DNA from: Thermosphaera chiliense
GTDB taxonomy: Archaea > Thermoproteota > Thermoprotei_A > Sulfolobales > Desulfurococcaceae
NCBI RefSeq assembly: GCF_014962245.1
Contig: NZ_CP063144.1
Coordinates: forward strand, 28,582-52,581
Length of the DNA stretch: 24,000 nt
Reading direction: 5' to 3'
Positions within the stretch are counted from its first letter, which is position 1, and each line of letters opens with the position of its first letter. Positions 1 through 22,110 of the stretch are shown here, in pieces. The notes beneath the pieces are model-generated. The model had not been told where the DNA came from, made no database searches, and saw only the letters and a list, made by a program, of their open reading frames with translations. Position numbers and translations under genes: made by a program.

Positions 1-2
1 GG

Positions 3-1001
3 ATTAGCGATGAATGGCTGGATTCCCTTGCGGAAGCGGTTTACGAGAAGCTGAGAGAAGCCTCCGTGACACGGTTCGTGATAGGGGTTAGGCTGAGCAG
101 GAAGTTGCGTGAAAAGGAGCTGTCGCTGATTGCTGAAGCAGGTTTCACCAGGGCTGAGTCCTTGAAGAACGAGGTTAAGAGAGAAGTAGGGAAGAGGGTG
201 ATGATTAAATACGGGCTGATGCCGGATTTCGAGAAGCCTGAAGCAACTGCGATAGTAAAGCTTGATGAAGACCTCAACCACAAGGTTGAGCTAGTGATAA
301 CCCCGGTCCTGCTGAAAGGCGTGTACAATAAGAGAGGGCGCAACATCTCACACGTTCCATGGTTTACGAAGCAGGGTGGGAGGAAATACCCCTTGAGCAT
401 TCAAGAATACTTGGAGTCCCGGTTAACGATTCCGTTCAAGGCTAAAAAAGTGAAGATTCATGCCGCCGGGAGAGAAGATGTTGATGCTAGAACGCTTGGC
501 CCAGGCAGGCCGTTGGTGATAGAGATTGTTGAACCACTCGTCAGAAGCTACGATATTGGAAACATTAACGAGCTGATCCGTAGCGATCTCGTTGAGGTAA
601 GAGTTAGTGAGCCAGCTAGTAGGAGGGATATTGAGCTTCTAAAGCAAACCTCCAGGGAGAGGAGGAAAGTCTACAGGCTACTCGTAATCTCGCCCACCCC
701 TGTCAGCGAGACACAGCTGAATGAGCTGGAAGCGTTCTTTAGAAACGTTAGCATCCAGCAGAGAACCCCTATAAGAATCCTAGCCCGTAAGAAGGATGTC
801 CTCAGGGTGAGAAAAGTCTACGAGGTTAGAACAAGGCTGGTCACTTCCACAAGCTTTGAAGCACTGGTATACTGTGATGGAGGCTTATACGTTAAGGAGC
901 TGGTCCACTGTGACCAGGGCAGGACCAACCCCTGCTTCGCAAGCATCCTCAACACCGAGCTGAAGCCTGTTGAGCTGGACGTCCTCTACATCGAGCACTG
1001 A
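3..1001 (+). CDS. pus10: tRNA pseudouridine synthase Pus10 (C-terminal catalytic part; 5' end lies outside the window)
   Basis: The reading frame is open from nt 3 to the window edge (ISDEWLDSLAEAVYEKLREAS precedes the listed M). It has the Pus10-type catalytic motif AGREDVDARTLGPGRPLVIEI and sits in the conserved archaeal neighbourhood upstream of rpl21e-rpoF. Confidence 0.8.
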   Translation: MSDEWLDSLAEAVYEKLREASVTRFVIGVRLSRKLREKELSLIAEAGFTRAESLKNEVKREVGKRVMIKYGLMPDFEKPEATAIVKLDEDLNHKVELVITPVLLKGVYNKRGRNISHVPWFTKQGGRKYPLSIQEYLESRLTIPFKAKKVKIHAAGREDVDARTLGPGRPLVIEIVEPLVRSYDIGNINELIRSDLVEVRVSEPASRRDIELLKQTSRERRKVYRLLVISPTPVSETQLNELEAFFRNVSIQQRTPIRILARKKDVLRVRKVYEVRTRLVTSTSFEALVYCDGGLYVKELVHCDQGRTNPCFASILNTELKPVELDVLYIEH

Positions 1002-7942: not shown

Positions 7943-9037
7943 CTACCAGCGCTTAATCCTTATCTTAACGTTTTTAGCTTCCAAGAACTCCTGGAATCCT
8001 TGCTTATGCTCGCTCATGTTCTCCAAGGGCTGTACGCCAGGCTTAACCAGCCGCTTCGCCGCCAGGTATGAAGCATACGCGTGAACCAGGGCTGTGAAGA
8101 AGGGTGTTGCCGGGTTCTCCACCGTCCCCTGTAAAACCGCTGTTTCAACATACCTTCCCCCGCCAATCCCTGTTGCCTCCACGTGGAGGATTGCTACATC
8201 GTTAACATCCGCCTTCAGCCTTGTCTCGAAGATTTTAGCGAGAACCCTCACCGGCTGCACCCTGGTGTTGTCGATTTCCAAGTAATCCTCGCTCATCAAA
8301 CCCAGGTCTCTCAGGAACTTCATATAGCCTACGTGCCCAGGCCATCTCAGAGTAACCTCTCTCATGTTCCGCGCCCTAATGTTTCTCAACAGGGTTCTCA
8401 AGCCGTCTGACACGAATCCTTCAAGCATTCCAACACCTTCAACATCTACCGTGATGGTCTCGGATAACGGGTCCACTGCTACGAGCTCTCCGTTGCGGAT
8501 AATTCTCGCAGGCCTCTTATACTCCTCGATGAGGTCAAAGGGGTTCCATGTTACAACGTAGCCTAGAGGGGGGATGGGGTAGCTGGGGATTCCTCCAACC
8601 ATTATGTCGATGCTTTCCAGCCCTCCCAGCTCCTTTTCCACGTATCCTGCGATCAAGTTGCTGTAGCCCGGGGCGAACCCGGCGTCAGGTATGAACACGG
8701 TTCCACACTTCTCCACTACAGGCTCGAGCAGGTAGGGGTCTTCCCTGGTGAATGAAACATCCACGATATCAACGCATTCCTCAGCCAGGGTTTTCAGGAT
8801 CGGGAAGGCTGTGGAGGAGGGGAGTGCTGTTACGAATAAGTCCGACTTTTTCGCAAGCTCTTTCAAAACGTCCTGCGAGTAGACATGGAACACTGTCCTG
8901 CCGAGGGCTTCAGCCAAGGGTTTAACCCCTGGGTTCGCGTCAACAGCGTTGAAGTTTGCGTCAGGGAGCAGTTCATGCAATAGTTTAAGCGTCCTATACC
9001 CGACTCTTCCAAGCCCGAGGACTGTTACCTCGCTCAT
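7943..9037 (-). CDS. Saccharopine dehydrogenase-family NAD(P)-dependent oxidoreductase
   Basis: The start is set at the internal ATG (9037), giving MSEVTVLGLGRVGYRT, a Rossmann GxGxxG at the N-terminus. The 82-codon upstream extension of the listed ORF would run across the divergent promoter and into the neighbouring gene. Confidence 0.7.
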   Translation of the reverse strand: MSEVTVLGLGRVGYRTLKLLHELLPDANFNAVDANPGVKPLAEALGRTVFHVYSQDVLKELAKKSDLFVTALPSSTAFPILKTLAEECVDIVDVSFTREDPYLLEPVVEKCGTVFIPDAGFAPGYSNLIAGYVEKELGGLESIDIMVGGIPSYPIPPLGYVVTWNPFDLIEEYKRPARIIRNGELVAVDPLSETITVDVEGVGMLEGFVSDGLRTLLRNIRARNMREVTLRWPGHVGYMKFLRDLGLMSEDYLEIDNTRVQPVRVLAKIFETRLKADVNDVAILHVEATGIGGGRYVETAVLQGTVENPATPFFTALVHAYASYLAAKRLVKPGVQPLENMSEHKQGFQEFLEAKNVKIRIKRW

Positions 9038-9103
9038 AAGCCTCTCCAAGCATATTAATTGTTGCTTGAAAATAATAACCTCTTGGGAACGGTGTCCTCC
9101 ACC

Positions 9104-9616
9104 ATGGCCGAGTTCAGAATAGAGGTCAAGCCTATTGGGGTAGTCCACGTTGAAGCAGGTGATGAGGAGGTTAAGAAGAGCGTTAACGGGGTTCCAGGGG
9201 TTGTTGAAATATTCCCCGAGTACGAGCAAGGCTTGAAAGGGCTGGAAGGCTTCTCGCACATAATCCTTGTAACATTCCTGCATAAGACTAGTGATCGAGA
9301 CAGGGAAACACTGCTGGTTAAGCCACGGAGGCTTGTCAAATATGGTTTCACACTGGAAGAACTACCGTTAATAGGGGTTTTCGCAACCGACTCCCCTCAC
9401 CGTCCAAACCCGATCGGGGTTTCAATAGTCGAGCTGGCTAGAGTTGAAGGCAGGTTTCTACATGTCAAGGGGTTGGACGTGTTCAACGGAACCCCTGTGC
9501 TGGATTTGAAGCCCTACACGCCCGGCAGGGTTGTGCGGGAGGTTAGGCTACCGGAATGGTATGCTAGCCTGCTGGAGAAGGCGAGGAGGGTTGAGCCCGG
9601 GCTGAGCGACCTGTAA
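9104..9616 (+). CDS. TrmO/TsaA (YaeB, UPF0066) family SAM-dependent tRNA methyltransferase
   Basis: VKPIGVVH, EIFPEYEQGLKGLEGFSHI, GVFATDSPHRPNPIGVS and GTPVLDLKPYTP are the family hallmark motifs. The start is set at the ATG at 9104 (MAEFRIEVKPIG). Confidence 0.85.
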   Translation: MAEFRIEVKPIGVVHVEAGDEEVKKSVNGVPGVVEIFPEYEQGLKGLEGFSHIILVTFLHKTSDRDRETLLVKPRRLVKYGFTLEELPLIGVFATDSPHRPNPIGVSIVELARVEGRFLHVKGLDVFNGTPVLDLKPYTPGRVVREVRLPEWYASLLEKARRVEPGLSDL

Positions 9617-11241: not shown

Positions 11242-12750
11242 ATGGTGTTTTTTATGTGGAGGAAGATGGCCTTAACACTCATACTTTCCTTTACCATATC
11301 AACCCTCCTCTCCTACTTCATCGTAATCCCGGACACCCCTGTTGGTGCTGAAATAGTAGGCTACTGGAGAACGGTGACTGGGAACAAAGGAGGCATTAAT
11401 GATTTAACAAGTATTTTCAAGCAATCCGTTTCCCTGGGGCTTTTCCTAGCTGTAATAGGGTTGACTATACTTTCAATGGAGTACCGCTACTACGCTGCCT
11501 TCCTGGGAATATCATTGATAACAATCCTGGGCATAGTGCCTCCCCAAGACATGATCGCAGGTGTGGAGTGGAGCCTAATACTTTTCTTGATAGGTAGCAT
11601 GACGCTCGCATTCATCCTTAGATCCCTCGGGGTTTTCGAATACCTCGCGATCAGGATACTCGAGTTTTCCAACGGCTCGGTTAGCAAGCTATTCTTTATA
11701 ATACTGTTCTTCGCCTGGTTCCTAGCAATGATCGTTGACGAGGCAACCAGCATAGTCTACGTGATCCTCCTAGTGTTCGAGATTAAAAGAATGACCCGGC
11801 AGGATGTAAGCATTATGGCTGTCGCCGCTGTTTTAGCAACCAACACTGGCAGCATGGCCCTGCCTGTTGGAAACCCTATTGGAATATACCTTTCTTTCAC
11901 AGCCCAGTTGTCCGTTAAAGACTTCCTGTTTAAATCACTGCCTTTATCATTCATCCTTTTAATAGTTGTTTACACTACTATCTACTTGTTAAGTAAAAAC
12001 TACTTGAAAACACTGGCAAGCGAGCTTAGCGAGGAAAGGGTTAGGAAGAGGATAGAAGCCTACTACTCCAACATACGTAGGGAGGACCTTGGCAGGGTTA
12101 AAATGGGCACAATGCTCATACTAGTTTTCCTTGTAACAGTATCCACGGTGGATTTCACCGCTGAAATCCTCACACGCTTCTCCGGCACCCACATCCAGGC
12201 TCACTCCCTCCTCTCCTTCATACCTTATACGCTGATACTGGTCGCAGGGTTGATCTACAGCCCTGAAAAGCTGGAGTACGCTATAACAAGGGGTGTTGAA
12301 TGGCCGTCAATCCTGTTCTTCATAACGCTCTTCATGCTAGGCTTCTCCCTATTATACACGGGGATAGCCTCTAAGCTAGCCTACGTGTTCATCGAGACAG
12401 GCATGAGCCCTGGTGGCGAGGATCCAGGCATGCTGGCAGAGCTAATGCTGGTTTTCTCAGCGGTTCTAAGCAGCGTGCTGGACAATCTAAGCGTCATAGT
12501 GGCGGCAACACCCATGGTTGAAACCATAGTGGCATTGTTCTCGGCGAAGAAAATATACTGGAGCCTATTATACGGGAGTGTCCTAGGAGGGAACTTCACC
12601 CCGATAGGGTCGACCGCTAACATAGTAGCGGTTGGAATGCTTGAAAAGGAGAAGGTCAGGACAACCTGGGGTTCCTGGCTGAGAGTAGCAATTATACCAA
12701 CCATTATCCAGGTTTTAATAGCCTTGGGATGGAGTGTTTTAATGGTTTAA
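11242..12750 (+). CDS. ArsB/NhaD-superfamily (ion-transporter superfamily) permease, substrate unknown
   Basis: This is a 502-aa polytopic membrane protein of two halves separated by a charged loop (SEERVRKRIEAYYSNIRRED). Each half has a helical-hairpin-like segment (ATNTGSMALPVGNPIG; GGNFTPIGSTANIVAV), as in ArsB/NhaD/CitMHS permeases. Confidence 0.6.
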   Translation: MVFFMWRKMALTLILSFTISTLLSYFIVIPDTPVGAEIVGYWRTVTGNKGGINDLTSIFKQSVSLGLFLAVIGLTILSMEYRYYAAFLGISLITILGIVPPQDMIAGVEWSLILFLIGSMTLAFILRSLGVFEYLAIRILEFSNGSVSKLFFIILFFAWFLAMIVDEATSIVYVILLVFEIKRMTRQDVSIMAVAAVLATNTGSMALPVGNPIGIYLSFTAQLSVKDFLFKSLPLSFILLIVVYTTIYLLSKNYLKTLASELSEERVRKRIEAYYSNIRREDLGRVKMGTMLILVFLVTVSTVDFTAEILTRFSGTHIQAHSLLSFIPYTLILVAGLIYSPEKLEYAITRGVEWPSILFFITLFMLGFSLLYTGIASKLAYVFIETGMSPGGEDPGMLAELMLVFSAVLSSVLDNLSVIVAATPMVETIVALFSAKKIYWSLLYGSVLGGNFTPIGSTANIVAVGMLEKEKVRTTWGSWLRVAIIPTIIQVLIALGWSVLMV

Positions 12751-12852
12751 ACAATCCTACACCACCCTGTTAACAGTTGCTGAAGCTTATTGTTGAAATG
12801 TTTAAATTGTGGAAGATTCATTTATTAAACATGAAATAAAAGGGCGGATTTC

Positions 12853-13668
12853 TTGAATCCTAAGGAGAGATTGGAGTTAATAGCTAAGTCACCAATAACG
12901 TTCACCCATCTCAGGCGGATAAACATTGCCGCAGGCATATTACACTCCATCACCGGTGTTTTAATGCTGATTCTAGGAGTGCTGCTGGAATGGGAGCGGC
13001 CTATATATACTTTCTACCTGAAATTCGATGTAAGCCAGTTCCCGTTCAGGATCTATCCGAACCCGCAGGTACTCTTCACGCTGAGCAATCTCGGCGTACT
13101 GGTTGCATCATTCCCATTGATGTCTGCAATAGCCCACTTCACAATAGCATTCCTCAAGTTTGACAAGTATGTTGAAAACTTGAAGAAAGGGATGAACCCA
13201 TACCGCTGGTACGAGTACTTCTTCTCCAGCTCAGTGATGATCGTGCTAATAGCCTTGTTCATCGGCGTTCTCGATCTCTGGTCCCTTGTCATGATTTTCA
13301 CCTTAAACGCTATCACGATGATGTTCGGCTACTTAATGGAGCTGTTAAACCAGTACACCGAGAAGACCAACTGGACGCCTTTCATACTGGGATGCTTCAC
13401 CGGCGCAGTCCCATGGATAGTCCTGTTCGCATACTTCGCCGCAGCGATTTCATCAGCAGGCACTAACCCGCCAGCGTTCGTCTACGCAATATTCTTCATA
13501 TACTTCATCGTCTTCAACGTCTTCGCTCTGAACATGTTCCTACAGTACAAGAGCGTTGGCAAGTGGAGAGACTACCTTTACGGCGAGAGAATGTATATTA
13601 TACTGAGCCTGGTGGCTAAGACCATACTTGCATGGCTTGTGTTCATAGGAGTGTTCGCACCGTTTTAA
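12853..13668 (+). CDS. Heliorhodopsin (type-1-like, inverted-topology retinal protein)
   Basis: Seven predicted TM helices with long blocks nearly identical to heliorhodopsin 48C12 as I recall it. These are RWYEYFFSSSVMIVLIA (48C12 RWVEYSLSSSVMIVLIA), PFILGCFTGAVPWI (PFWFGCIAGIVPWI) and GERMYIILSLVAKTILAW (GERAYIVLSLVAKSALAW). The Schiff-base Lys (K256, codon 13618-13620), counterion Glu (E121, codon 13213-13215) and both conserved His (H31, H95) are present. The start is TTG. Confidence 0.88.
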   Translation: MNPKERLELIAKSPITFTHLRRINIAAGILHSITGVLMLILGVLLEWERPIYTFYLKFDVSQFPFRIYPNPQVLFTLSNLGVLVASFPLMSAIAHFTIAFLKFDKYVENLKKGMNPYRWYEYFFSSSVMIVLIALFIGVLDLWSLVMIFTLNAITMMFGYLMELLNQYTEKTNWTPFILGCFTGAVPWIVLFAYFAAAISSAGTNPPAFVYAIFFIYFIVFNVFALNMFLQYKSVGKWRDYLYGERMYIILSLVAKTILAWLVFIGVFAPF

Positions 13669-13780: not shown

Positions 13781-13990
13781 TTGCTCTGCGTTAAAATACT
13801 TCCTGAAAGCGTTGAAAAATGCTTCAGCGTTGAGAAAGCGCTTCTGAAAAACATTGTAGAAGGGTTGAAGGAGGAGGTTGAAGGATACAACATCCTCGTC
13901 CTCGTTAACGATAAGCTCGTTGAAAACTACGACTTGGAAATCACTAGTGCCGATAGAATTATAGTAGTGAAGGAAAATATAGGGGGATAA
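13781..13990 (+). CDS. ThiS/SAMP-like beta-grasp ubiquitin-like protein with C-terminal Gly-Gly (Ubl-1)
   Basis: 69 aa with a TTG start. It has a ThiS-like layout (VLVNDKLVENYDLEITSADRIIVVKENIGG) and ends exactly in GG before the stop. Confidence 0.65.
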   Translation: MLCVKILPESVEKCFSVEKALLKNIVEGLKEEVEGYNILVLVNDKLVENYDLEITSADRIIVVKENIGG

Positions 13991-14020
13991 GCGTATTATA
14001 ACGGTAAGGGTGAGGCCTTT

Positions 14021-14284
14021 TTGAAGGTAACCGTGGTATTCCTGGGAAGAGCTAGCGAGCTATCCCAGAAGTCAATAATAACGGTTGAGCTACCTGAGAA
14101 CGCAACACTCTACGACTTGTTGAAAAAGCTTGGTGAGGCAGTTAACCCGCGGATTTTCACCAAATTCCTCGAGGGCCAATACGTGTTCGTGACATACGTG
14201 AACGACACCCCCACTATCTCGCTCACAACCCCGTTGAAAGATGGTGACAGGGTTTCGCTTATAACCCCGGAAATGGGTGGTTGA
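14021..14284 (+). CDS. MoaD/SAMP1-like beta-grasp ubiquitin-like protein with C-terminal Gly-Gly (Ubl-2)
   Basis: 87 aa with a MoaD pattern: MKVTVVFLGRASEL, VELPENATLYDLLKKL, LKDGDRVSLITPEMGG-stop. Confidence 0.8.
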   Translation: MKVTVVFLGRASELSQKSIITVELPENATLYDLLKKLGEAVNPRIFTKFLEGQYVFVTYVNDTPTISLTTPLKDGDRVSLITPEMGG

Positions 14285-14289
14285 GAAGC

Positions 14290-15036
14290 TTACTGCTCTA
14301 GGCACACCTGGCAGTCAAACTTCTTAATCTCTATTATTTCGAGACTGTTTGTTTTACCATTGAATAAGGCTATTTTATTAATCAATGGTTCCCCTATGCC
14401 TAAAACAATCTTAACAACTTCATTAACTTCCAGCAGTCCTATCAACCCGGGAATATGCCCCATCACTATTACAGGCTTCTTCTCCGCCTTCTCAACCCCT
14501 TTGAACAAACACCTTAAGCAGGGTGTTTTCCCTGGTATAATAGTTGTTAACTGCCCGTAGAACTCCCCAACGCCGGCGTGAACCAGGGGTTTTCCAAGCC
14601 TCCAGCAAGCCTTGTCCAGGACGAACCTTGTCTCCCAGTTATCCAGGGCGTCGACAACCACGTCGGCCTTGCTTACGTAATCATCTATTGTTTCCTCAGT
14701 GATTCTCGCGTGAACCGGTACTATGTCAACGTTAGGATTGAGTTTTCTCAGCTTATGGTATGCTGCAACTACTTTAGGCTTACCTAAGTCGTCAACAGTG
14801 TAGAGGATTTGCCTTTGAAGATTGCTCAACTCCACTAACCCTTCATCTATAACGATTACTCTGCCAACACCCATGGCAACCAGGTAGTAGAGAACAGAGG
14901 AGCCCAGTCCCCCGGCCCCGGCAACCAGGATGCTCGAGCCTTTAAGCCTAAGCTGCCCCTCAACCCCAATCAAAGGGATTTGCCTACTGTACCTTTCAAG
15001 CTCCTCAGCGCTAAGCACGCCTGCCCCCGCGCTCAA
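14290..15036 (-). CDS. MoeB/ThiF/UbaA-type E1-like Ubl-activating (adenylating) enzyme, minimal form without a rhodanese domain
   Basis: RYSRQIPLIG, the nucleotide loop VAGAGGLGS, IDEGLVELSNLQRQ and two CxxC zinc pairs (CLRC and CQVC) are present. It starts 2 nt after the stop of Ubl-3. Confidence 0.88.
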   Translation of the reverse strand: MSAGAGVLSAEELERYSRQIPLIGVEGQLRLKGSSILVAGAGGLGSSVLYYLVAMGVGRVIVIDEGLVELSNLQRQILYTVDDLGKPKVVAAYHKLRKLNPNVDIVPVHARITEETIDDYVSKADVVVDALDNWETRFVLDKACWRLGKPLVHAGVGEFYGQLTTIIPGKTPCLRCLFKGVEKAEKKPVIVMGHIPGLIGLLEVNEVVKIVLGIGEPLINKIALFNGKTNSLEIIEIKKFDCQVCLEQ

Positions 15037-15266: not shown

Positions 15267-16109
15267 TTATCCAGGCTTCTCGTAAAAAGGTATTCTACCA
15301 TCGTGATAATCCCTTATGATAGCTCTCGCGGCCTCCTCTATCAAGGGCTCCCGCGTGGTCTTGTAAAACCATCCTCTTTTAACAGCATAGTGTTCAAGAA
15401 TCCCCAGAGGATCCTGTGCTTCGATACCGTAGGTTTTAACGAATGCTTCCTTATCGTAGCCTAGTATCTTCTTTATGAGCTCGATCGCAGGGTTCACTGG
15501 GTCCGGGAGCTTCTCCGGCGGATACCCTCTTAAAACCCTCTCTAGATCCCCGCCCTCCACCGGTATTACACCGGGGGTGTCGATCATGTAGATGTCCTCG
15601 TCAATCCTGTAGAGCTGGAAGGTCCTAGTGTATCCTGGGCTCCCAGGGTAGGGGCTCGTAGGGGCTGAGTGGCGTCCTTTAAGGGCGTTGATTATTGAGG
15701 ACTTCCCTACCTTGGGATAGCCTGCCACCGCGACCGTTGCCGGGAATTCTCTCGCCAAGTGCTTGATTGTTCGGCGAAGCCTTAGAGTACCCATGTGCCT
15801 GGCAGCGGCAATGTAGACTGCGTGGTAGCCCCTGGCTTTGAAAAACTCCTTCCACTCATCAGCAACATCCCTGGGAACCAGGTCGCTCTTGTTGAGAACG
15901 AGAAGCAGTTGCTTGCCGTGCCTAGCAGTCATTGCCTCAAGCCTTTTGCTGAAAGTCTCCAGCGGCGTCCTAGCATCCAGGACCATTAACACAATGTCTG
16001 CTTTAGAAACCATCCTCTCCAGCTCGCTCCACGAGGCTAGTTTAAAAACCGTCGCTATCACCCCCGTATTTCTCAAACCTTTCCAAGGCTTCCACAGGGA
16101 TCTGCTCAA
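15267..16109 (-). CDS. Circularly permuted YlqF/RbgA (YawG)-family ribosome-biogenesis GTPase
   Basis: The G-motif order is permuted: G4 LNKSD, then G1 GYPKVGKSS, then G3 DTPG. The start is uncertain. The listed ATG at 16109 overlaps the upstream gene by 68 nt, and an alternative ATG at 16013 avoids the overlap. Confidence 0.8.
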   Translation of the reverse strand: MSRSLWKPWKGLRNTGVIATVFKLASWSELERMVSKADIVLMVLDARTPLETFSKRLEAMTARHGKQLLLVLNKSDLVPRDVADEWKEFFKARGYHAVYIAAARHMGTLRLRRTIKHLAREFPATVAVAGYPKVGKSSIINALKGRHSAPTSPYPGSPGYTRTFQLYRIDEDIYMIDTPGVIPVEGGDLERVLRGYPPEKLPDPVNPAIELIKKILGYDKEAFVKTYGIEAQDPLGILEHYAVKRGWFYKTTREPLIEEAARAIIRDYHDGRIPFYEKPG

Positions 16110-16641
16110 GCCAGTTGATCCTTAAGCCCGGCTCAAACCCGGCCTCCCCTCTTACCACCGCAAGGGCTTCACCAAGCACTACATCAATACTCTTCCCGGA
16201 AACATCCAGCTCGTAAATCTTATTCTCCCCGAAGGCTTCCAAGGCATTCACCGAGACCGTTCCAAGTATCTCAGCCATAACATTCTCATTAACCTTCTCC
16301 CTCCCCCACCCTCTATCCAGTAGCCTCTTCTCGAGCTCGAGAGGATTGAGCCTTAGAACAACAACCTTGTCCACGATGCCGGGGTCGATGATCTCTGGGT
16401 AGTGGGTATCTATGATGACGTAGCCATCCCTGTTCTCAACAATTCTTTTAATCCTTGAGGCAACGGCTTCCTCATCGATCACGTATGTTTTCCTTGAAGC
16501 ATCATACTCCAGGATGAGCCCGTTATCGATGGCGAACCTTGACAGGTCAATAGCCTCCGTGCCTAAGACTCTTGCAAGCTCCCTGGCCAAGCTCGACTTG
16601 CCCGTTCCCGGCACGCCTGCTATAATAATGGCTTTCCCCAT
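16042..16641 (-). CDS. Fap7/AK6-like adenylate kinase / NTPase (small-subunit rRNA maturation factor)
   Basis: It has the P-loop IIIAGVPGTGKSS at the N-terminus, VIIDTHY, VVVLRLNPLELEKRLLDRGW and ENVMAEIL (the Fap7 pattern VLR..P..L..RL..RG ... EN..AE). Confidence 0.75.
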   Translation of the reverse strand: MGKAIIIAGVPGTGKSSLARELARVLGTEAIDLSRFAIDNGLILEYDASRKTYVIDEEAVASRIKRIVENRDGYVIIDTHYPEIIDPGIVDKVVVLRLNPLELEKRLLDRGWGREKVNENVMAEILGTVSVNALEAFGENKIYELDVSGKSIDVVLGEALAVVRGEAGFEPGLRINWLEQIPVEALERFEKYGGDSDGF

Positions 16642-16747
16642 GGTTTAACACTTGAATAAGGAATTTGTAAAACCCTTATTTATCCTCCAGGAGCATCCCG
16701 GATACGTTTTTAATTCCCCTGTGCTATAACATGTTTATAGACTGCTG

Positions 16748-18442
16748 GTGAATGGTTTGACCCAGACAACGTTGAAGAGGCCTGGTGAGATATCTTACTC
16801 CTTGCCTAAGGTTAGGCAGGGGGAAGAGGTCTTATCCCTCACGTTAAGCGTGTGCCCATACTGCTACAGGGAGCTGGCAAGCATTATTGTTGAGAGAGAG
16901 GGAAAGGTTTACATTAGGAGGGTTTGCCCGGAGCACGGGGAGATAGAGGAGCTCTACTACGGTGATGTAGCCTTCTATAAGAAGGTGACAAGCTGGTATG
17001 AAGAAGGCCGCGGGGCACGCCACGTGTACACTCCTGTATCAACCCTCTGCCCCTTTAACTGCGGACTCTGCCCAATGCATAAGAACCACACCGCGTTGAT
17101 AAACATGGTTATAACCAATAGGTGTAACCTAAGTTGCTGGTACTGCTTCTTCTACGCTGAAGCCGCCGGATACGTTTACGAGCCAAGCCTTGAACAGATA
17201 AGGGACATGGTGAGAAGCATTAAGAAGCAGGGGGTAACGGTTGCGATACAGCTAACGGGCGGAGAGCCCCTGCTAAGGGATGACCTAATAGACATTGTCA
17301 AGCTCCTGAGGGATGAAGGGGTTAAACACATCCAGTTGAACACCAACGGGATAAAATTCGCAGAGCTATATCTCGAGGATCCTGCTAAAGCAGTGGAGTA
17401 CGCTAGGGCTCTCAGAAGCAACGGTGTCAACACAGTCTACCTCAGCTTCGACGGCGTGTCACCAGTGGTCAACTGGAAAAACCACTGGGAGGTACCATAT
17501 ATTTTCGAGACTTTCAGGAAGGCCGGGATGACCAGCGTCGTCCTGGTGCCCACTGTTATAAAGGGCGTGAACACTCACGAGCTGGGAGCTATACTAAAGT
17601 TCGCGGGGAGAAACATGGATGTTGTCAGAGCAGTGAACTTCCAGCCGGTAAGCCTTACAGGCTACATGAAGAAGCATGAAAGAGAGAAATACCGTATCAC
17701 AATACCCGACGTTGTCAAGCTCGTGGAGGAGCAGACAAACGGGGAGATCCACTCCAACGCCTGGTTCCCGGTCAACGTTAGCGCAATATTCTCAAGGTTC
17801 GTGGAAGGCTTCAGCGGCGAGTTCAAGTTTGAGATGAGCAACCACCCGATATGTGGTGTTGGAACATACGTTTACGTTGAAAGAAGCAACGGCAACGTCA
17901 AGTTCACCCCTATAACGGACTTCGTCGATATTGAAGGACTCCTCGAGTACTTGAAGGATAAGTGGGAGGACCTGGTTACAGGCTCTAGCAGGTTGACAAC
18001 AGGCCTACGCCTCCTCTACAGTATAAGAAAGTTTATCAACCAGGAGAAAGCTCCCGAGGGCTTCGACCTCTACAAGCTACTGTTTAACATTATTGTTAAA
18101 AGAAGCTATGAAGCCCTGGGAGAGCTACACTATAAGCTGTTGTTCATAGGGCAGATGCACTTCATGGACCTGTACAACTACGATATTCAAAGAGTTCAGA
18201 GGTGCAACATACACTACTCAGTACCTGATGGCAGGCTGATACCGTTCTGCGCGTTCAACATCTTTGACGACATCTACAGGGATAAGATACAGAGGGAGTA
18301 CAGCATCCCGGCGGAGGAGTACTCGGCTAAGTACAGCCTGCCCAAGGGGTATTTGACGAGAAAGTATGTGAGAGATAGGAGAAGGCTTGAATCCTCAGAG
18401 CTCTACAAGATTACTTATGAAGGATTGCTGGAGAAAAAATAA
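16748..18442 (+). CDS. Radical SAM enzyme of the Tes / GDGT-MAS (MJ0619-like) family, probable tetraether lipid synthase
   Basis: It has the radical SAM motif CNLSCWYC, preceded by a second Cys cluster CPFNCGLCPMH and an N-terminal rubredoxin-like CPYC...CPEHG knuckle, with a long C-terminal domain (564 aa). The start is GTG. The family assignment comes from remembered architecture, not from a search. Confidence 0.6.
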   Translation: MNGLTQTTLKRPGEISYSLPKVRQGEEVLSLTLSVCPYCYRELASIIVEREGKVYIRRVCPEHGEIEELYYGDVAFYKKVTSWYEEGRGARHVYTPVSTLCPFNCGLCPMHKNHTALINMVITNRCNLSCWYCFFYAEAAGYVYEPSLEQIRDMVRSIKKQGVTVAIQLTGGEPLLRDDLIDIVKLLRDEGVKHIQLNTNGIKFAELYLEDPAKAVEYARALRSNGVNTVYLSFDGVSPVVNWKNHWEVPYIFETFRKAGMTSVVLVPTVIKGVNTHELGAILKFAGRNMDVVRAVNFQPVSLTGYMKKHEREKYRITIPDVVKLVEEQTNGEIHSNAWFPVNVSAIFSRFVEGFSGEFKFEMSNHPICGVGTYVYVERSNGNVKFTPITDFVDIEGLLEYLKDKWEDLVTGSSRLTTGLRLLYSIRKFINQEKAPEGFDLYKLLFNIIVKRSYEALGELHYKLLFIGQMHFMDLYNYDIQRVQRCNIHYSVPDGRLIPFCAFNIFDDIYRDKIQREYSIPAEEYSAKYSLPKGYLTRKYVRDRRRLESSELYKITYEGLLEKK

Positions 18443-18469
18443 TGCTATAGGGTTTTAGAAGAGAAAAAC

Positions 18470-19906
18470 CTACTTTTTAGCCTCCCCGGTCTCCACTGTA
18501 TGCCTTGAGTAGAAGTCCTTGATCAGTCTCAATGCTAGAGGCGTGAAGTATGCTACAGCTATTAGGTTGGGGATAGCCATCAAGCCGTTAGCCATGTCTG
18601 AGAAGGTCCAGAATGTTTCAAAGTATGCTCCGTACACGGCGGCAGGTATAATGGGTATTATCCAAATTATTCTCCAGATAAACCTCATCGGTTTCTCAGG
18701 AAGCCTCAGCGTCCTAACCCAGAAGTAGGTCCAGTTAATCTCTCCATACCACTCCCACGACAGCAGTGTTGTGTAGGCGAACAATGCAAGGGCTACTCCG
18801 AGAATGATGGGGGCGTATGTACCGTACGCCCTGTAGAAGGTCTCCATGGCGAGAGCCGCACCGCTCAGGTCGGGTCTGTCGATGTATGTTCTCGCAACAA
18901 TGTTTGCAATACCCGTGATCGAGCAGATAACAATCGTGTCCATAAACACCTCGAAGACGCCGTAGAAGGCGGCCCTGCCAGGATGGTCTACTGTCATGAA
19001 GGCGTAGGCGTTGGGAGCGCTTCCCATGCCTGCCTCGTTAGAGAACAACCCTCTCGCGAAACCGTACCTGATAGCGCTGTAGACAACCCATCCCGACAAG
19101 CCGCCTGCAGCGGCCTGTGGTGTGAAAGCGTATGTGAAGATCTCCGAGATGCCTGCGAGGAAGTTGCCGCCGAACTTTATCCAGACGCCGATTCCGAATA
19201 TTATGTACCATGCCGCCATGAACGGGATCATGTAGTTAGCTACTTCTGCAATCCTCTTCAGACCGCCGATGACGACGAGGGCTGTGAAGAACATTATCAG
19301 TATGCCAACTATCAGCCTTAACTGGAAGATCTGCTCCTCGGTTTCAGCCCCGAATAGTTTACCAATGTACTCAGCTCCGAGCGCGACATTGTTAGCCTGA
19401 ACCATGTTGCCAATGCCGAATGCCGCTATGAAAGTGAAGATTGAGAATAACACTGCGAGAGCCGGCCCAATCACCGGGACCAGCCTGATGTAGTATGGTG
19501 TGCCACCCTCAATCCTTCCCTCCGGGGTAACCCTCCTGGACCACACGCCCAGGGTTGCCTCAACACCCTTCAAACCCATTCCAAGTATTGCGCAGACCCA
19601 CATCCAGAATAGGGCTCCAGCACCTCCAAGGTGTAGAGCGGTTGACACACCTGCGATGTTTCCGACACCGACGGTAGCGCCCATGACTGTGGCCCAGATG
19701 GCGAAAGGCTTAACCTCACCCCTGCCTCCTGTACCCTTATACAGCATTGTTTTAACCGCCGTGCCAAACTTTCTTATCTGGTAGAATCCTCCTAGTATTC
19801 CAACGGCTAGTCCTGTTCCAGCCAGGATGATTATGGCAGGTAGACCCCACACGAGGCCATCGATATAATCTATTAATTCGACGATATCCAAATCCTTCAC
19901 CCACAA
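18470..19906 (-). CDS. Alanine/glycine:cation (sodium) symporter, AGCS family
   Basis: The signature ATVGVGNIAGVSTALHLGGAGALFWMW is present, with about 11 TM helices over 478 aa. Confidence 0.85.
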   Translation of the reverse strand: MWVKDLDIVELIDYIDGLVWGLPAIIILAGTGLAVGILGGFYQIRKFGTAVKTMLYKGTGGRGEVKPFAIWATVMGATVGVGNIAGVSTALHLGGAGALFWMWVCAILGMGLKGVEATLGVWSRRVTPEGRIEGGTPYYIRLVPVIGPALAVLFSIFTFIAAFGIGNMVQANNVALGAEYIGKLFGAETEEQIFQLRLIVGILIMFFTALVVIGGLKRIAEVANYMIPFMAAWYIIFGIGVWIKFGGNFLAGISEIFTYAFTPQAAAGGLSGWVVYSAIRYGFARGLFSNEAGMGSAPNAYAFMTVDHPGRAAFYGVFEVFMDTIVICSITGIANIVARTYIDRPDLSGAALAMETFYRAYGTYAPIILGVALALFAYTTLLSWEWYGEINWTYFWVRTLRLPEKPMRFIWRIIWIIPIIPAAVYGAYFETFWTFSDMANGLMAIPNLIAVAYFTPLALRLIKDFYSRHTVETGEAKK

Positions 19907-21784: not shown

Positions 21785-21803
21785 AGGCTTTTTTAAAAAA
21801 TAG

Positions 21804-21898
21804 TAGCCGGGCGGGGATTCGAACCCCGGTCACGGGGGCACTCCCCCTCGGCCCAAGGGACCAGAGCCCCGCATCCTTGGCCGCTAGACGACCCGGCT
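21804..21898 (-). tRNA. tRNA-Gln (anticodon CUG) with a 22-nt intron at the canonical 37/38 position
   Basis: On the minus strand the acceptor is AGCCGGG/CCCGGCU, the D-arm is GUCUAGCGGCCAAGGAU, the anticodon stem is CGGGG/CCCCG with loop CU-CUG-G, and the T-arm is CGGGG-UUCGAAU-CCCCG with discriminator A. The intron UCCCUUGGGCCGAGGGGGAGUG folds into a bulge-helix-bulge: a 4-bp helix CUCU:GGAG flanked by the 3-nt bulges GG|U and UG|C. No CCA is encoded. Confidence 0.85.
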
Positions 21899-22017
21899 GT
21901 CAATTATGAAATAATCCTGTAGAGCTTTTTAATCTTTAAGTTTCGGTCAACGCGGGGAACACTTGGTTAGAGCGGTATGTTTTAAAAGCCTATTCGGATT
22001 AATCAATAATAGCCTGG

Positions 22018-22091
22018 GGGCCCGTAGCTCAGCATGGTAGAGCGGCGGGCTTTTAACCCGTAGGTCCCGGGTTCAAATCCCGGCGGGCCCG
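22018..22091 (+). tRNA. tRNA-Lys (anticodon UUU)
   Basis: The acceptor is GGGCCCG/CGGGCCC, the D-arm is GCUC-AGCAUGGUA-GAGC, the anticodon stem is GCGGG/CCCGU with loop CU-UUU-AA, the variable loop is AGGUC and the T-arm is CCGGG-UUCAAAU-CCCGG. A TTTTAAAAG box lies about 30 nt upstream. No CCA is encoded. Confidence 0.92.
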
Positions 22092-22110
22092 CATAACCCT
22101 ATTTTTAAAA

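Follow-up and report, generated by a model that had tools for sequence, protein, structure and literature searches.

A gene for a heliorhodopsin (HeR), a retinal-binding membrane protein of the light-sensor type, lies between an anion transporter gene and a pair of small genes in the genome of Thermosphaera chiliense, and was analysed here with its surroundings over a stretch of 24,000 nucleotides, termed the window. The positions of the features are listed in Table 1. The HeR frame is the sole long open reading frame in its stretch, and the opposite strand is rich in stop codons. Its start codon is supported by the orthologues from other Thermosphaera, which begin with ATG at the codon matching the TTG. 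The TTG is used by T. chiliense and one environmental relative (contig L099), and ATG by all other Thermosphaera orthologues; a Shine-Dalgarno-like GGTGA precedes the ATG in the latter, the corresponding motif in T. chiliense being GGCGGA. To judge from these start regions, translation of HeR may be less efficient in the T. chiliense lineage. Upstream of the start, a TATA-like box represents a candidate promoter element, and the orthologues carry an A/T box (ATAATTAATA) at an equal distance. A scan with sigma-70 promoter and terminator models was set aside, being unsuited to archaea.

Table 1. Features of the window, with positions counted from its first letter
Feature	Position	Strand	Remarks
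Pus10 gene	1..1001		cut by the window start; 311 aa visible, 441 aa in T. aggregans DSM 11486
Saccharopine-dehydrogenase-like protein	7943..9283		mechanical ORF 446 aa, called gene 364 aa
CitMHS/ArsB-family anion transporter	11242..12750	+	conserved left flank; also in HeR-less DSM 11486
Deletion junction	12754..12850	.	~97 unrelated bp; ~3.7 kb (pdxS, pdxT, PALP, two small ORFs) there in other Thermosphaera genomes
A/T-rich TATA-like box TTTATTAAA	12821..12829	+	24-32 nt 5' of the start codon; candidate archaeal promoter element
Heliorhodopsin CDS	12853..13668	+	271 aa, TTG start, TAA stop; QOR94435.1 / WP_193436234.1
3' end of the HeR gene	13573..13668	+	survives as an in-frame 31-codon remnant (YLYGERMYIILSLTAKTILAWLVFIGVFAPF, then stop) in T. 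aggregans DSM 11486
T-rich stretch 3' of the stop codon	13669..13710	+	TTATTTT, TTTATTTCTTTT; candidate oligo-T archaeal terminator
69-aa protein and 87-aa MoaD/ThiS-like protein	13781..14284	+	conserved right flank; 87-aa protein with C-terminal GG
Small-protein cluster	13781..14284; 14290..15036	+; -	67-aa SAMP2 gene at 12187-12390 (-) of locus L081
Radical-SAM protein (Tes)	16748..18442	+
tRNA-Gln(CTG)	21803..21898	-	96 nt, intron-bearing; 73% G+C
tRNA-Gln(CTG) and tRNA-Lys(TTT)	21803..22092	-; +	tRNA-Lys 68% G+C

The surroundings are of the housekeeping type, as the preliminary description had proposed, with an archaeal cluster of Pus10, L21e, RpoF, DUF655, KsgA, GlmS and others. The radical-SAM protein is the tetraether lipid synthase Tes, maker of GDGT membrane lipids; a Pfam match to an "HMPTM zinc ribbon" as a sign of a methanopterin enzyme was rejected, NCBIfam model NF045702 (704 bits) identifying the protein as Tes. 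Three small ubiquitin-like proteins of the MoaD/ThiS type (69, 87 and 67 aa, the first two ending in GG) are grouped around a ThiF/MoeB E1-like enzyme, and their sequences resemble an archaeal protein-modification module of the SAMP type or a sulfur-carrier module. The 69-aa protein of the right flank has no family match. The true start of the saccharopine-dehydrogenase-like protein probably lies downstream, since the mechanical frame is longer than the called gene. The tRNA-Gln was reported by ARAGORN, its length implying an intron, and is absent at the Rfam gathering threshold; the Rfam scan of the window returned tRNA-Lys alone.

The source organism, Thermosphaera sp. strain 3507, is a Desulfurococcaceae crenarchaeon (Thermoprotei, Desulfurococcales) from a Chilean spring of 83 °C and pH 6.3, a strict anaerobe derived from a binary enrichment culture and cultivated at 85 °C, with no mention of light or retinal, and its complete genome is a single chromosome of 1,305,106 bp (PMC7729421). 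By exact look-ups, HeR and five other window proteins are T. chiliense proteins on one record of that length; moreover, the exact HeR protein occurs on a contig of run SRR12969965 (Logan), the isolate sequencing of strain 3507. The (hyper)thermophilic Thermoproteota host proposed from the DNA alone is thus the correct one. A Bathyarchaeia MAG as the source of the window, to which the nearest homologues at first pointed, was rejected on the strength of these exact matches and the isolate paper. The GC-only tRNA stems noted at that time were also observed, the acceptor and T stems of tRNA-Lys and tRNA-Gln being essentially all G+C, and the high G+C of both tRNAs (68-73%, versus 49% for the window) supports hyperthermophily. 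Furthermore, the IVYWREL fraction of 0.459 corresponds to approximately 95 °C by the Zeldovich relation, an estimate from about 7,000 residues, and the ratio (E+K)/(Q+H) is 4.0. Among 71 HeR-bearing loci, those of Thermosphaera rank top by IVYWREL. In nature, Thermosphaera inhabits streamer communities at 82-84 °C in spring outflows, where some Thermus is also found.

Family membership, functional residues and fold

Profile searches demonstrate that the gene encodes a complete heliorhodopsin, in agreement with the preliminary description. Pfam PF18761 was matched with E=1.8e-92 and 309.5 bits (cutoff 26.7 bits) over model positions 1-241 of 242, and the NCBIfam equivalog NF038020, "heliorhodopsin HeR", with 347.3 bits (cutoff 100) over positions 1-244 of 244. 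At E≤1, PF18761 was the only Pfam family returned and the bacteriorhodopsin family was unmatched, and the protein was not assigned to the type-1 rhodopsins, which include pumps, channels and sensory rhodopsins.

The key residues were compared in an alignment of 129 sequences. The Schiff-base lysine and the single counterion glutamate, pointed out earlier as K256 in SLVAK and E121 in RWYEY, align with K241 and E107 of 48C12, respectively, while the two histidines H31 and H95 correspond to H23 and H80. The SSSVMIVLIA block is likewise present at residues 125-134. Further kept residues are S91 (S76 in 48C12), N115, R118, W119, E163 (E149), Y241, E245, S252 (S237) and W261. None of these, nor K256, E121, H31 and H95, varies in any of the 127 relatives, and in all 20+ conserved functional residues are kept. 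The retinal pocket, with its Schiff-base lysine, counterion, histidine pair and polar-cavity residues, is intact.

An AlphaFold2 (AF2) model of the protein (pLDDT 76.8, pTM 0.76) contains seven transmembrane helices and exhibits the HeR-type fold, including the HeR-specific A-B beta-hairpin (strands 48-59 and 66-78) and a B-C loop helix at 103-111. HeR structures took all of the first ten places among the PDB matches to the model (TM 0.67-0.75), with TaHeR and 48C12 best; type-1 rhodopsins ranked after them at TM 0.5-0.6 and 8-16% identity, the best being SRII (E=8.6e-4, TM 0.58, 13% identity). With the helix limits of the model, about 12 lysines and arginines are located in the N-terminus and the B-C, D-E and F-G loops, and 3 in the A-B, C-D and E-F loops and the C-terminus. 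By the positive-inside rule, this distribution fits an inverted topology with a cytoplasmic N-terminus.

Among solved relatives, the closest is TaHeR of Thermoplasmatales archaeon SG8-52-1 (PDB 6is6, 7u55, 7clj), with E=2.9e-59 and 47% identity over 246 residues, which is also the best structural match (TM 0.69/0.74). Both proteins share the lysine, the glutamate and the two histidines, a methionine at the position of 48C12 Q213, the A-B beta-hairpin and the B-C helix, and the TaHeR host is also thought to be without retinal synthesis. That host is an uncultured euryarchaeon, unlike the cultured T. chiliense, whose HeR differs from TaHeR in having about 14 additional residues at the N-terminus, a longer E-F region, and clade-specific residues (T34 for Gln, L140 for Trp, and I154/T155/M156). 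The founding member 48C12, from a freshwater actinobacterial fosmid (PDB 6su3, 6uh3, 9ljj), is matched with E=1.3e-46 and 42% identity, and its residues K241, E107, H23, H80, S76, S237, N101, R104, E149, Y226, E230 and W246 all find their counterparts. It is bacterial and carries Gln at 148 and 213, whereas T. chiliense HeR has Met at both. TaHeR and 48C12 have long photocycles, and both are of unknown function and probably sensory. As here, the HeR of Thermococcus sp. 2319x1 comes from a cultured anaerobic hyperthermophilic archaeon; E. coli served for its expression, and the protein purified with retinal has its absorption at 530 nm (Kim et al. 2021, PMC7807009). Both proteins have Met at each of the two main tuning sites, but the Thermococcus HeR is euryarchaeal and has Ser before the Schiff-base lysine in place of Ala255.

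Outside the genus, the nearest relatives are HeRs of Bathyarchaeia and Methanobacteria (cluster C10, Bulzu et al. 2021; Pan et al. 2020), which number in the thousands at 62-78% identity. They agree with the T. chiliense protein in length and conserved residues and their hosts belong to GTDB Thermoproteota, but they derive mostly from sediment and soil metagenome-assembled genomes (MAGs) of mesophiles or moderate thermophiles. More than 5,700 homologues were found at E<1e-10, the named ones being called "heliorhodopsin HeR [Candidatus Bathyarchaeota archaeon]", and the best 80 GTDB genome loci, at 62-76% identity, are almost all from Bathyarchaeia MAGs. In a neighbour-joining tree, all 100 bootstrap replicates recovered the Thermosphaera HeRs as a monophyletic clade, whose divergence from every other sequence is 22% or more. 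The best candidate for a sister is the HeR of "Thermococcaceae archaeon UBA12520" (L009), which is 75% identical and has several derived residues in common with the Thermosphaera HeRs; this placement is weakly supported, at 35/100, and a sister group of all other sequences received 56/100. Contigs with this archaeal type of HeR were also seen binned as Thermococcaceae (L009), Sumerlaeota, a bacterial phylum (L041), Methanothermobacter (L043) and Methanomassiliicoccales (L035/L068), which points to horizontal transfer or mis-binning. The flanking proteins of L009, L043 and L069 are hyperthermophile-like in composition.

Locus history and selection in Thermosphaera

The window is collinear with the genome of T. 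aggregans DSM 11486, the type strain of a sister species, at approximately 82% nucleotide identity, except between the CitMHS gene and the 69-aa gene. In environmental Thermosphaera contigs, the order at this slot is CitMHS, pdxS, pdxT, PALP enzyme, two small ORFs, HeR, 69-aa gene, MoaD-like and ThiF, where pdxS-pdxT encode pyridoxal-phosphate synthase and PALP is a PLP enzyme. Intact HeR orthologues occupy the equivalent slot in at least six other Thermosphaera contigs, including Yellowstone metagenomes. The 3.7 kb with pdxS-pdxT-PALP directly upstream of HeR is missing from T. chiliense, and the identical junction recurs in the T. chiliense-like environmental contig L099 (97.8% identical). 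Break points of the junction were placed by blastn against L089 and L092, and the slots compared were L089 4264-7998 and L085 (reverse-complemented) 15578-18640. In DSM 11486 a deletion took the HeR promoter and codons 1-240, leaving the 3' remnant. Replacement of HeR by pdxS-pdxT-PALP in that strain was considered and rejected, as environmental Thermosphaera contigs carry both. Since these contigs retain pdxS-pdxT-PALP and HeR together, two independent deletions have occurred. The slot can be regarded as a deletion hotspot, with pdxS-pdxT-PALP lost in T. chiliense and most of HeR in DSM 11486.

The full arrangement in the environmental contigs and the remnant in DSM 11486 indicate that HeR is ancestral in Thermosphaera at its present slot and vertically inherited, being neither a contaminant nor a recent passenger. 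HeR is dispensable in culture, given its loss from the type strain T. aggregans DSM 11486. The right-flank genes are context only because they are also kept where HeR was deleted, and the CitMHS transporter is likewise context, with no sign of functional coupling to HeR.

Comparison of T. chiliense with other Thermosphaera lineages gave a dN/dS of 0.037-0.042 for HeR at dS≈1.1, demonstrating strong purifying selection and a gene kept working in nature. The earlier view that it is not a decayed remnant therefore agrees with both the intact frame and the low dN/dS (≈0.04). No excess of derived amino-acid changes was found on the T. chiliense branch (6-8 versus 4-7). Relaxed selection after the upstream deletion was also considered and was not seen, in a comparison with L099 of low power (3.5 non-synonymous versus 6.5 synonymous changes). 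As the native upstream region has been deleted and TTG replaces ATG, HeR expression in T. chiliense may be weak, or may rely on read-through from the transporter gene.

Gene neighbourhoods, retinal and likely role

In the 80 archaeal HeR loci (L001-L080), protein families encoded within 4 kb of HeR were clustered; their counts are raw, the loci being phylogenetically non-independent. The most frequent neighbours were SOUL haem-binding proteins (19 loci), Pyridox_ox_2 (15) and AhpC/TSA peroxiredoxin (11), followed by DUF1722/2-thiouracil-desulfurase-like proteins (7), UvdE, TspO, DUF6512 and DUF371 (6 each), Staygreen (5) and MsrA (4). UvdE and peroxiredoxin also flank the HeR of P0002, which is 78% identical. 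These neighbours suggest a theme of light, UV, oxidative stress and tetrapyrroles, and their recurrence supports the published hypothesis that HeRs switch on defences against light-induced (photo-oxidative) damage. SOUL, Pyridox_ox_2, peroxiredoxin, UvdE, TspO and MsrA often adjoin HeR in Bathyarchaeia, but none of them adjoins the Thermosphaera HeR. The window and the 80 loci have no neighbourhood in common, HeR alone being shared, and neither a partner protein nor an informative neighbour was identifiable beside the Thermosphaera gene. It can also be observed that HeR lies about 3 kb from a Pus10-L21e-RpoF-DUF655-KsgA-methyltransferase cluster in a Candidatus Methanosuratincola MAG (L075; 3234-6894 and 10001-10822) and about 9.5 kb from the same cluster in Thermosphaera; this proximity may be fortuitous or a trace of ancient synteny in Thermoproteota.

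As stated in the preliminary description, the 24 kb contain no carotenoid or retinal gene, to judge from the annotated ORFs. This absence is unremarkable because most HeR hosts are without the pathway: it is complete in 1 of 381 HeR-only genomes, and blh is rare near HeRs. The final known step of retinal synthesis is catalysed by an oxygenase, and a lateral fenestration of TaHeR has been proposed to capture exogenous retinal. The colour-tuning positions Q148, Q213 and A240 of 48C12 are M162, M228 and A255 in T. chiliense HeR, a pattern of HeRs absorbing below 540 nm, among them the Thermococcus sp. 2319x1 protein (PMC7807009). Since Met replaces Gln of 48C12 at the tuning sites, a blue shift to below about 545 nm is predicted.

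Taken together, the gene is best explained as a genuine, functional heliorhodopsin of the strictly anaerobic hyperthermophile T. chiliense 3507, a reading that we consider probable. Against it speak the lack of retinal and carotenoid genes in the window, the cultivation of a strict anaerobe with no stated light or retinal, the loss of the gene from the T. aggregans type strain, the deleted upstream region with its TTG start, and flanks that hold none of the stress genes seen beside HeR in Bathyarchaeia. The opposite view, that it is foreign to Thermosphaera through contamination, mis-assembly or very recent passage from Bathyarchaeia, would find some basis in the predominance of Bathyarchaeia MAGs among the named close matches outside the genus (nearly all of those at 62-76% identity), in flanks unlike those of the Bathyarchaeia loci, and in the origin of strain 3507 from a binary enrichment. 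It is refuted by the synteny and the 3' remnant: HeR is on the single 1.3-Mb chromosome between flanks collinear with T. aggregans, the type strain retains its 3' end at the matching spot, and orthologues stand at the equivalent slot in the other Thermosphaera contigs. Moreover, the divergent Thermosphaera clade received full bootstrap support and the GC3 of the gene (0.65) is inside the range of its neighbours, so that a foreign origin has next to no probability.

The remaining alternatives concern the manner in which the protein works. Light-gated or light-driven ion transport in place of sensing is suggested by a fold in common with type-1 pumps and channels, to which the similarity is low (TM 0.5-0.6), and some viral HeRs conduct protons. 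Against this, the nearest characterised relatives, TaHeR and 48C12, are both probably sensory with long photocycles, the bacteriorhodopsin model is unmatched at E≤1, and identity to type-1 rhodopsins is only 8-16%; transport is consequently regarded as very improbable. Somewhat less improbable, although still unlikely, is that HeR works without retinal, there being no supply of it at 83-85 °C, either as an apo-opsin whose role would be structural, related to lipids or regulatory for a partner, or with a different chromophore of anaerobic origin. The lack of a retinal gene in the 24 kb, the oxygenase needed for the last known step, the strictly anaerobic, hyperthermophilic host, and 27 clade-specific substitutions, including W140L and the change from MMI to ITM at 154-156 in helix D, all speak for this possibility. 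The invariance of the lysine, counterion, both histidines and polar residues in 127 of 127 relatives at a dN/dS≈0.04 is hard to explain without a chromophore, however, and HeRs bind added retinal even though most of their hosts are without the pathway.

For the functional heliorhodopsin preferred here, the most likely role, by analogy with characterised members of the family, is that of a non-transporting light sensor with scavenged retinal. All-trans-retinal would be bound at K256, and absorption would be in the green at about 530-545 nm, as predicted from M162/M228/A255. Ion transport would be absent, and a long-lived photointermediate would serve light sensing or the regulation of a partner protein, as in characterised prokaryotic HeRs. 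Since known biosynthesis requires O2 and no pathway gene lies nearby, the community is the probable source of the retinal, which would be scavenged, perhaps through a lateral fenestration as described for TaHeR. It is plausible that light is a cue for surface exposure in streamer communities: in shallow, sunlit outflows of 80-85 °C, it would signal the exposed surface, with its light, UV and O2, to an oxygen-sensitive cell. Only tentatively can it be proposed that a strict anaerobe without the O2-dependent route to retinal has an active photoreceptor at 80-85 °C, temperatures too high for phototrophy, the chromophore coming from the community or from a novel anaerobic route.

The preliminary description overstated the case in calling a retinal photoreceptor unexpected in this lineage. 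Papers since 2018 record HeRs even in hyperthermophiles, one of which has been expressed; Bathyarchaeial HeRs are already published, with thousands of close homologues, and the T. chiliense protein already bears the name "heliorhodopsin HeR" in RefSeq and UniProt. The finding is thus of a kind already known, namely a typical heliorhodopsin whose host is unusual. No literature was found that links heliorhodopsin with Thermosphaera or Desulfurococcales, or that uses the name "Thermosphaera chiliense", and as far as the literature found extends, this is the first documented crenarchaeal HeR (Desulfurococcales). What is new is the genus-level history of the locus, the evidence of selection, the natural knockout and the deletion hotspot. 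The role of heliorhodopsins is still unsettled, and here one is present in a cultured organism of 85 °C with a complete 1.3-Mb genome, offering a thermostable HeR for biophysics. In addition, T. chiliense 3507 and T. aggregans DSM 11486 provide a pair with and without HeR, in which responses to light, UV and oxygen can be compared with added retinal. If the protein is indeed an active photoreceptor, these two cultured species would allow a direct physiological test of the role of heliorhodopsin.
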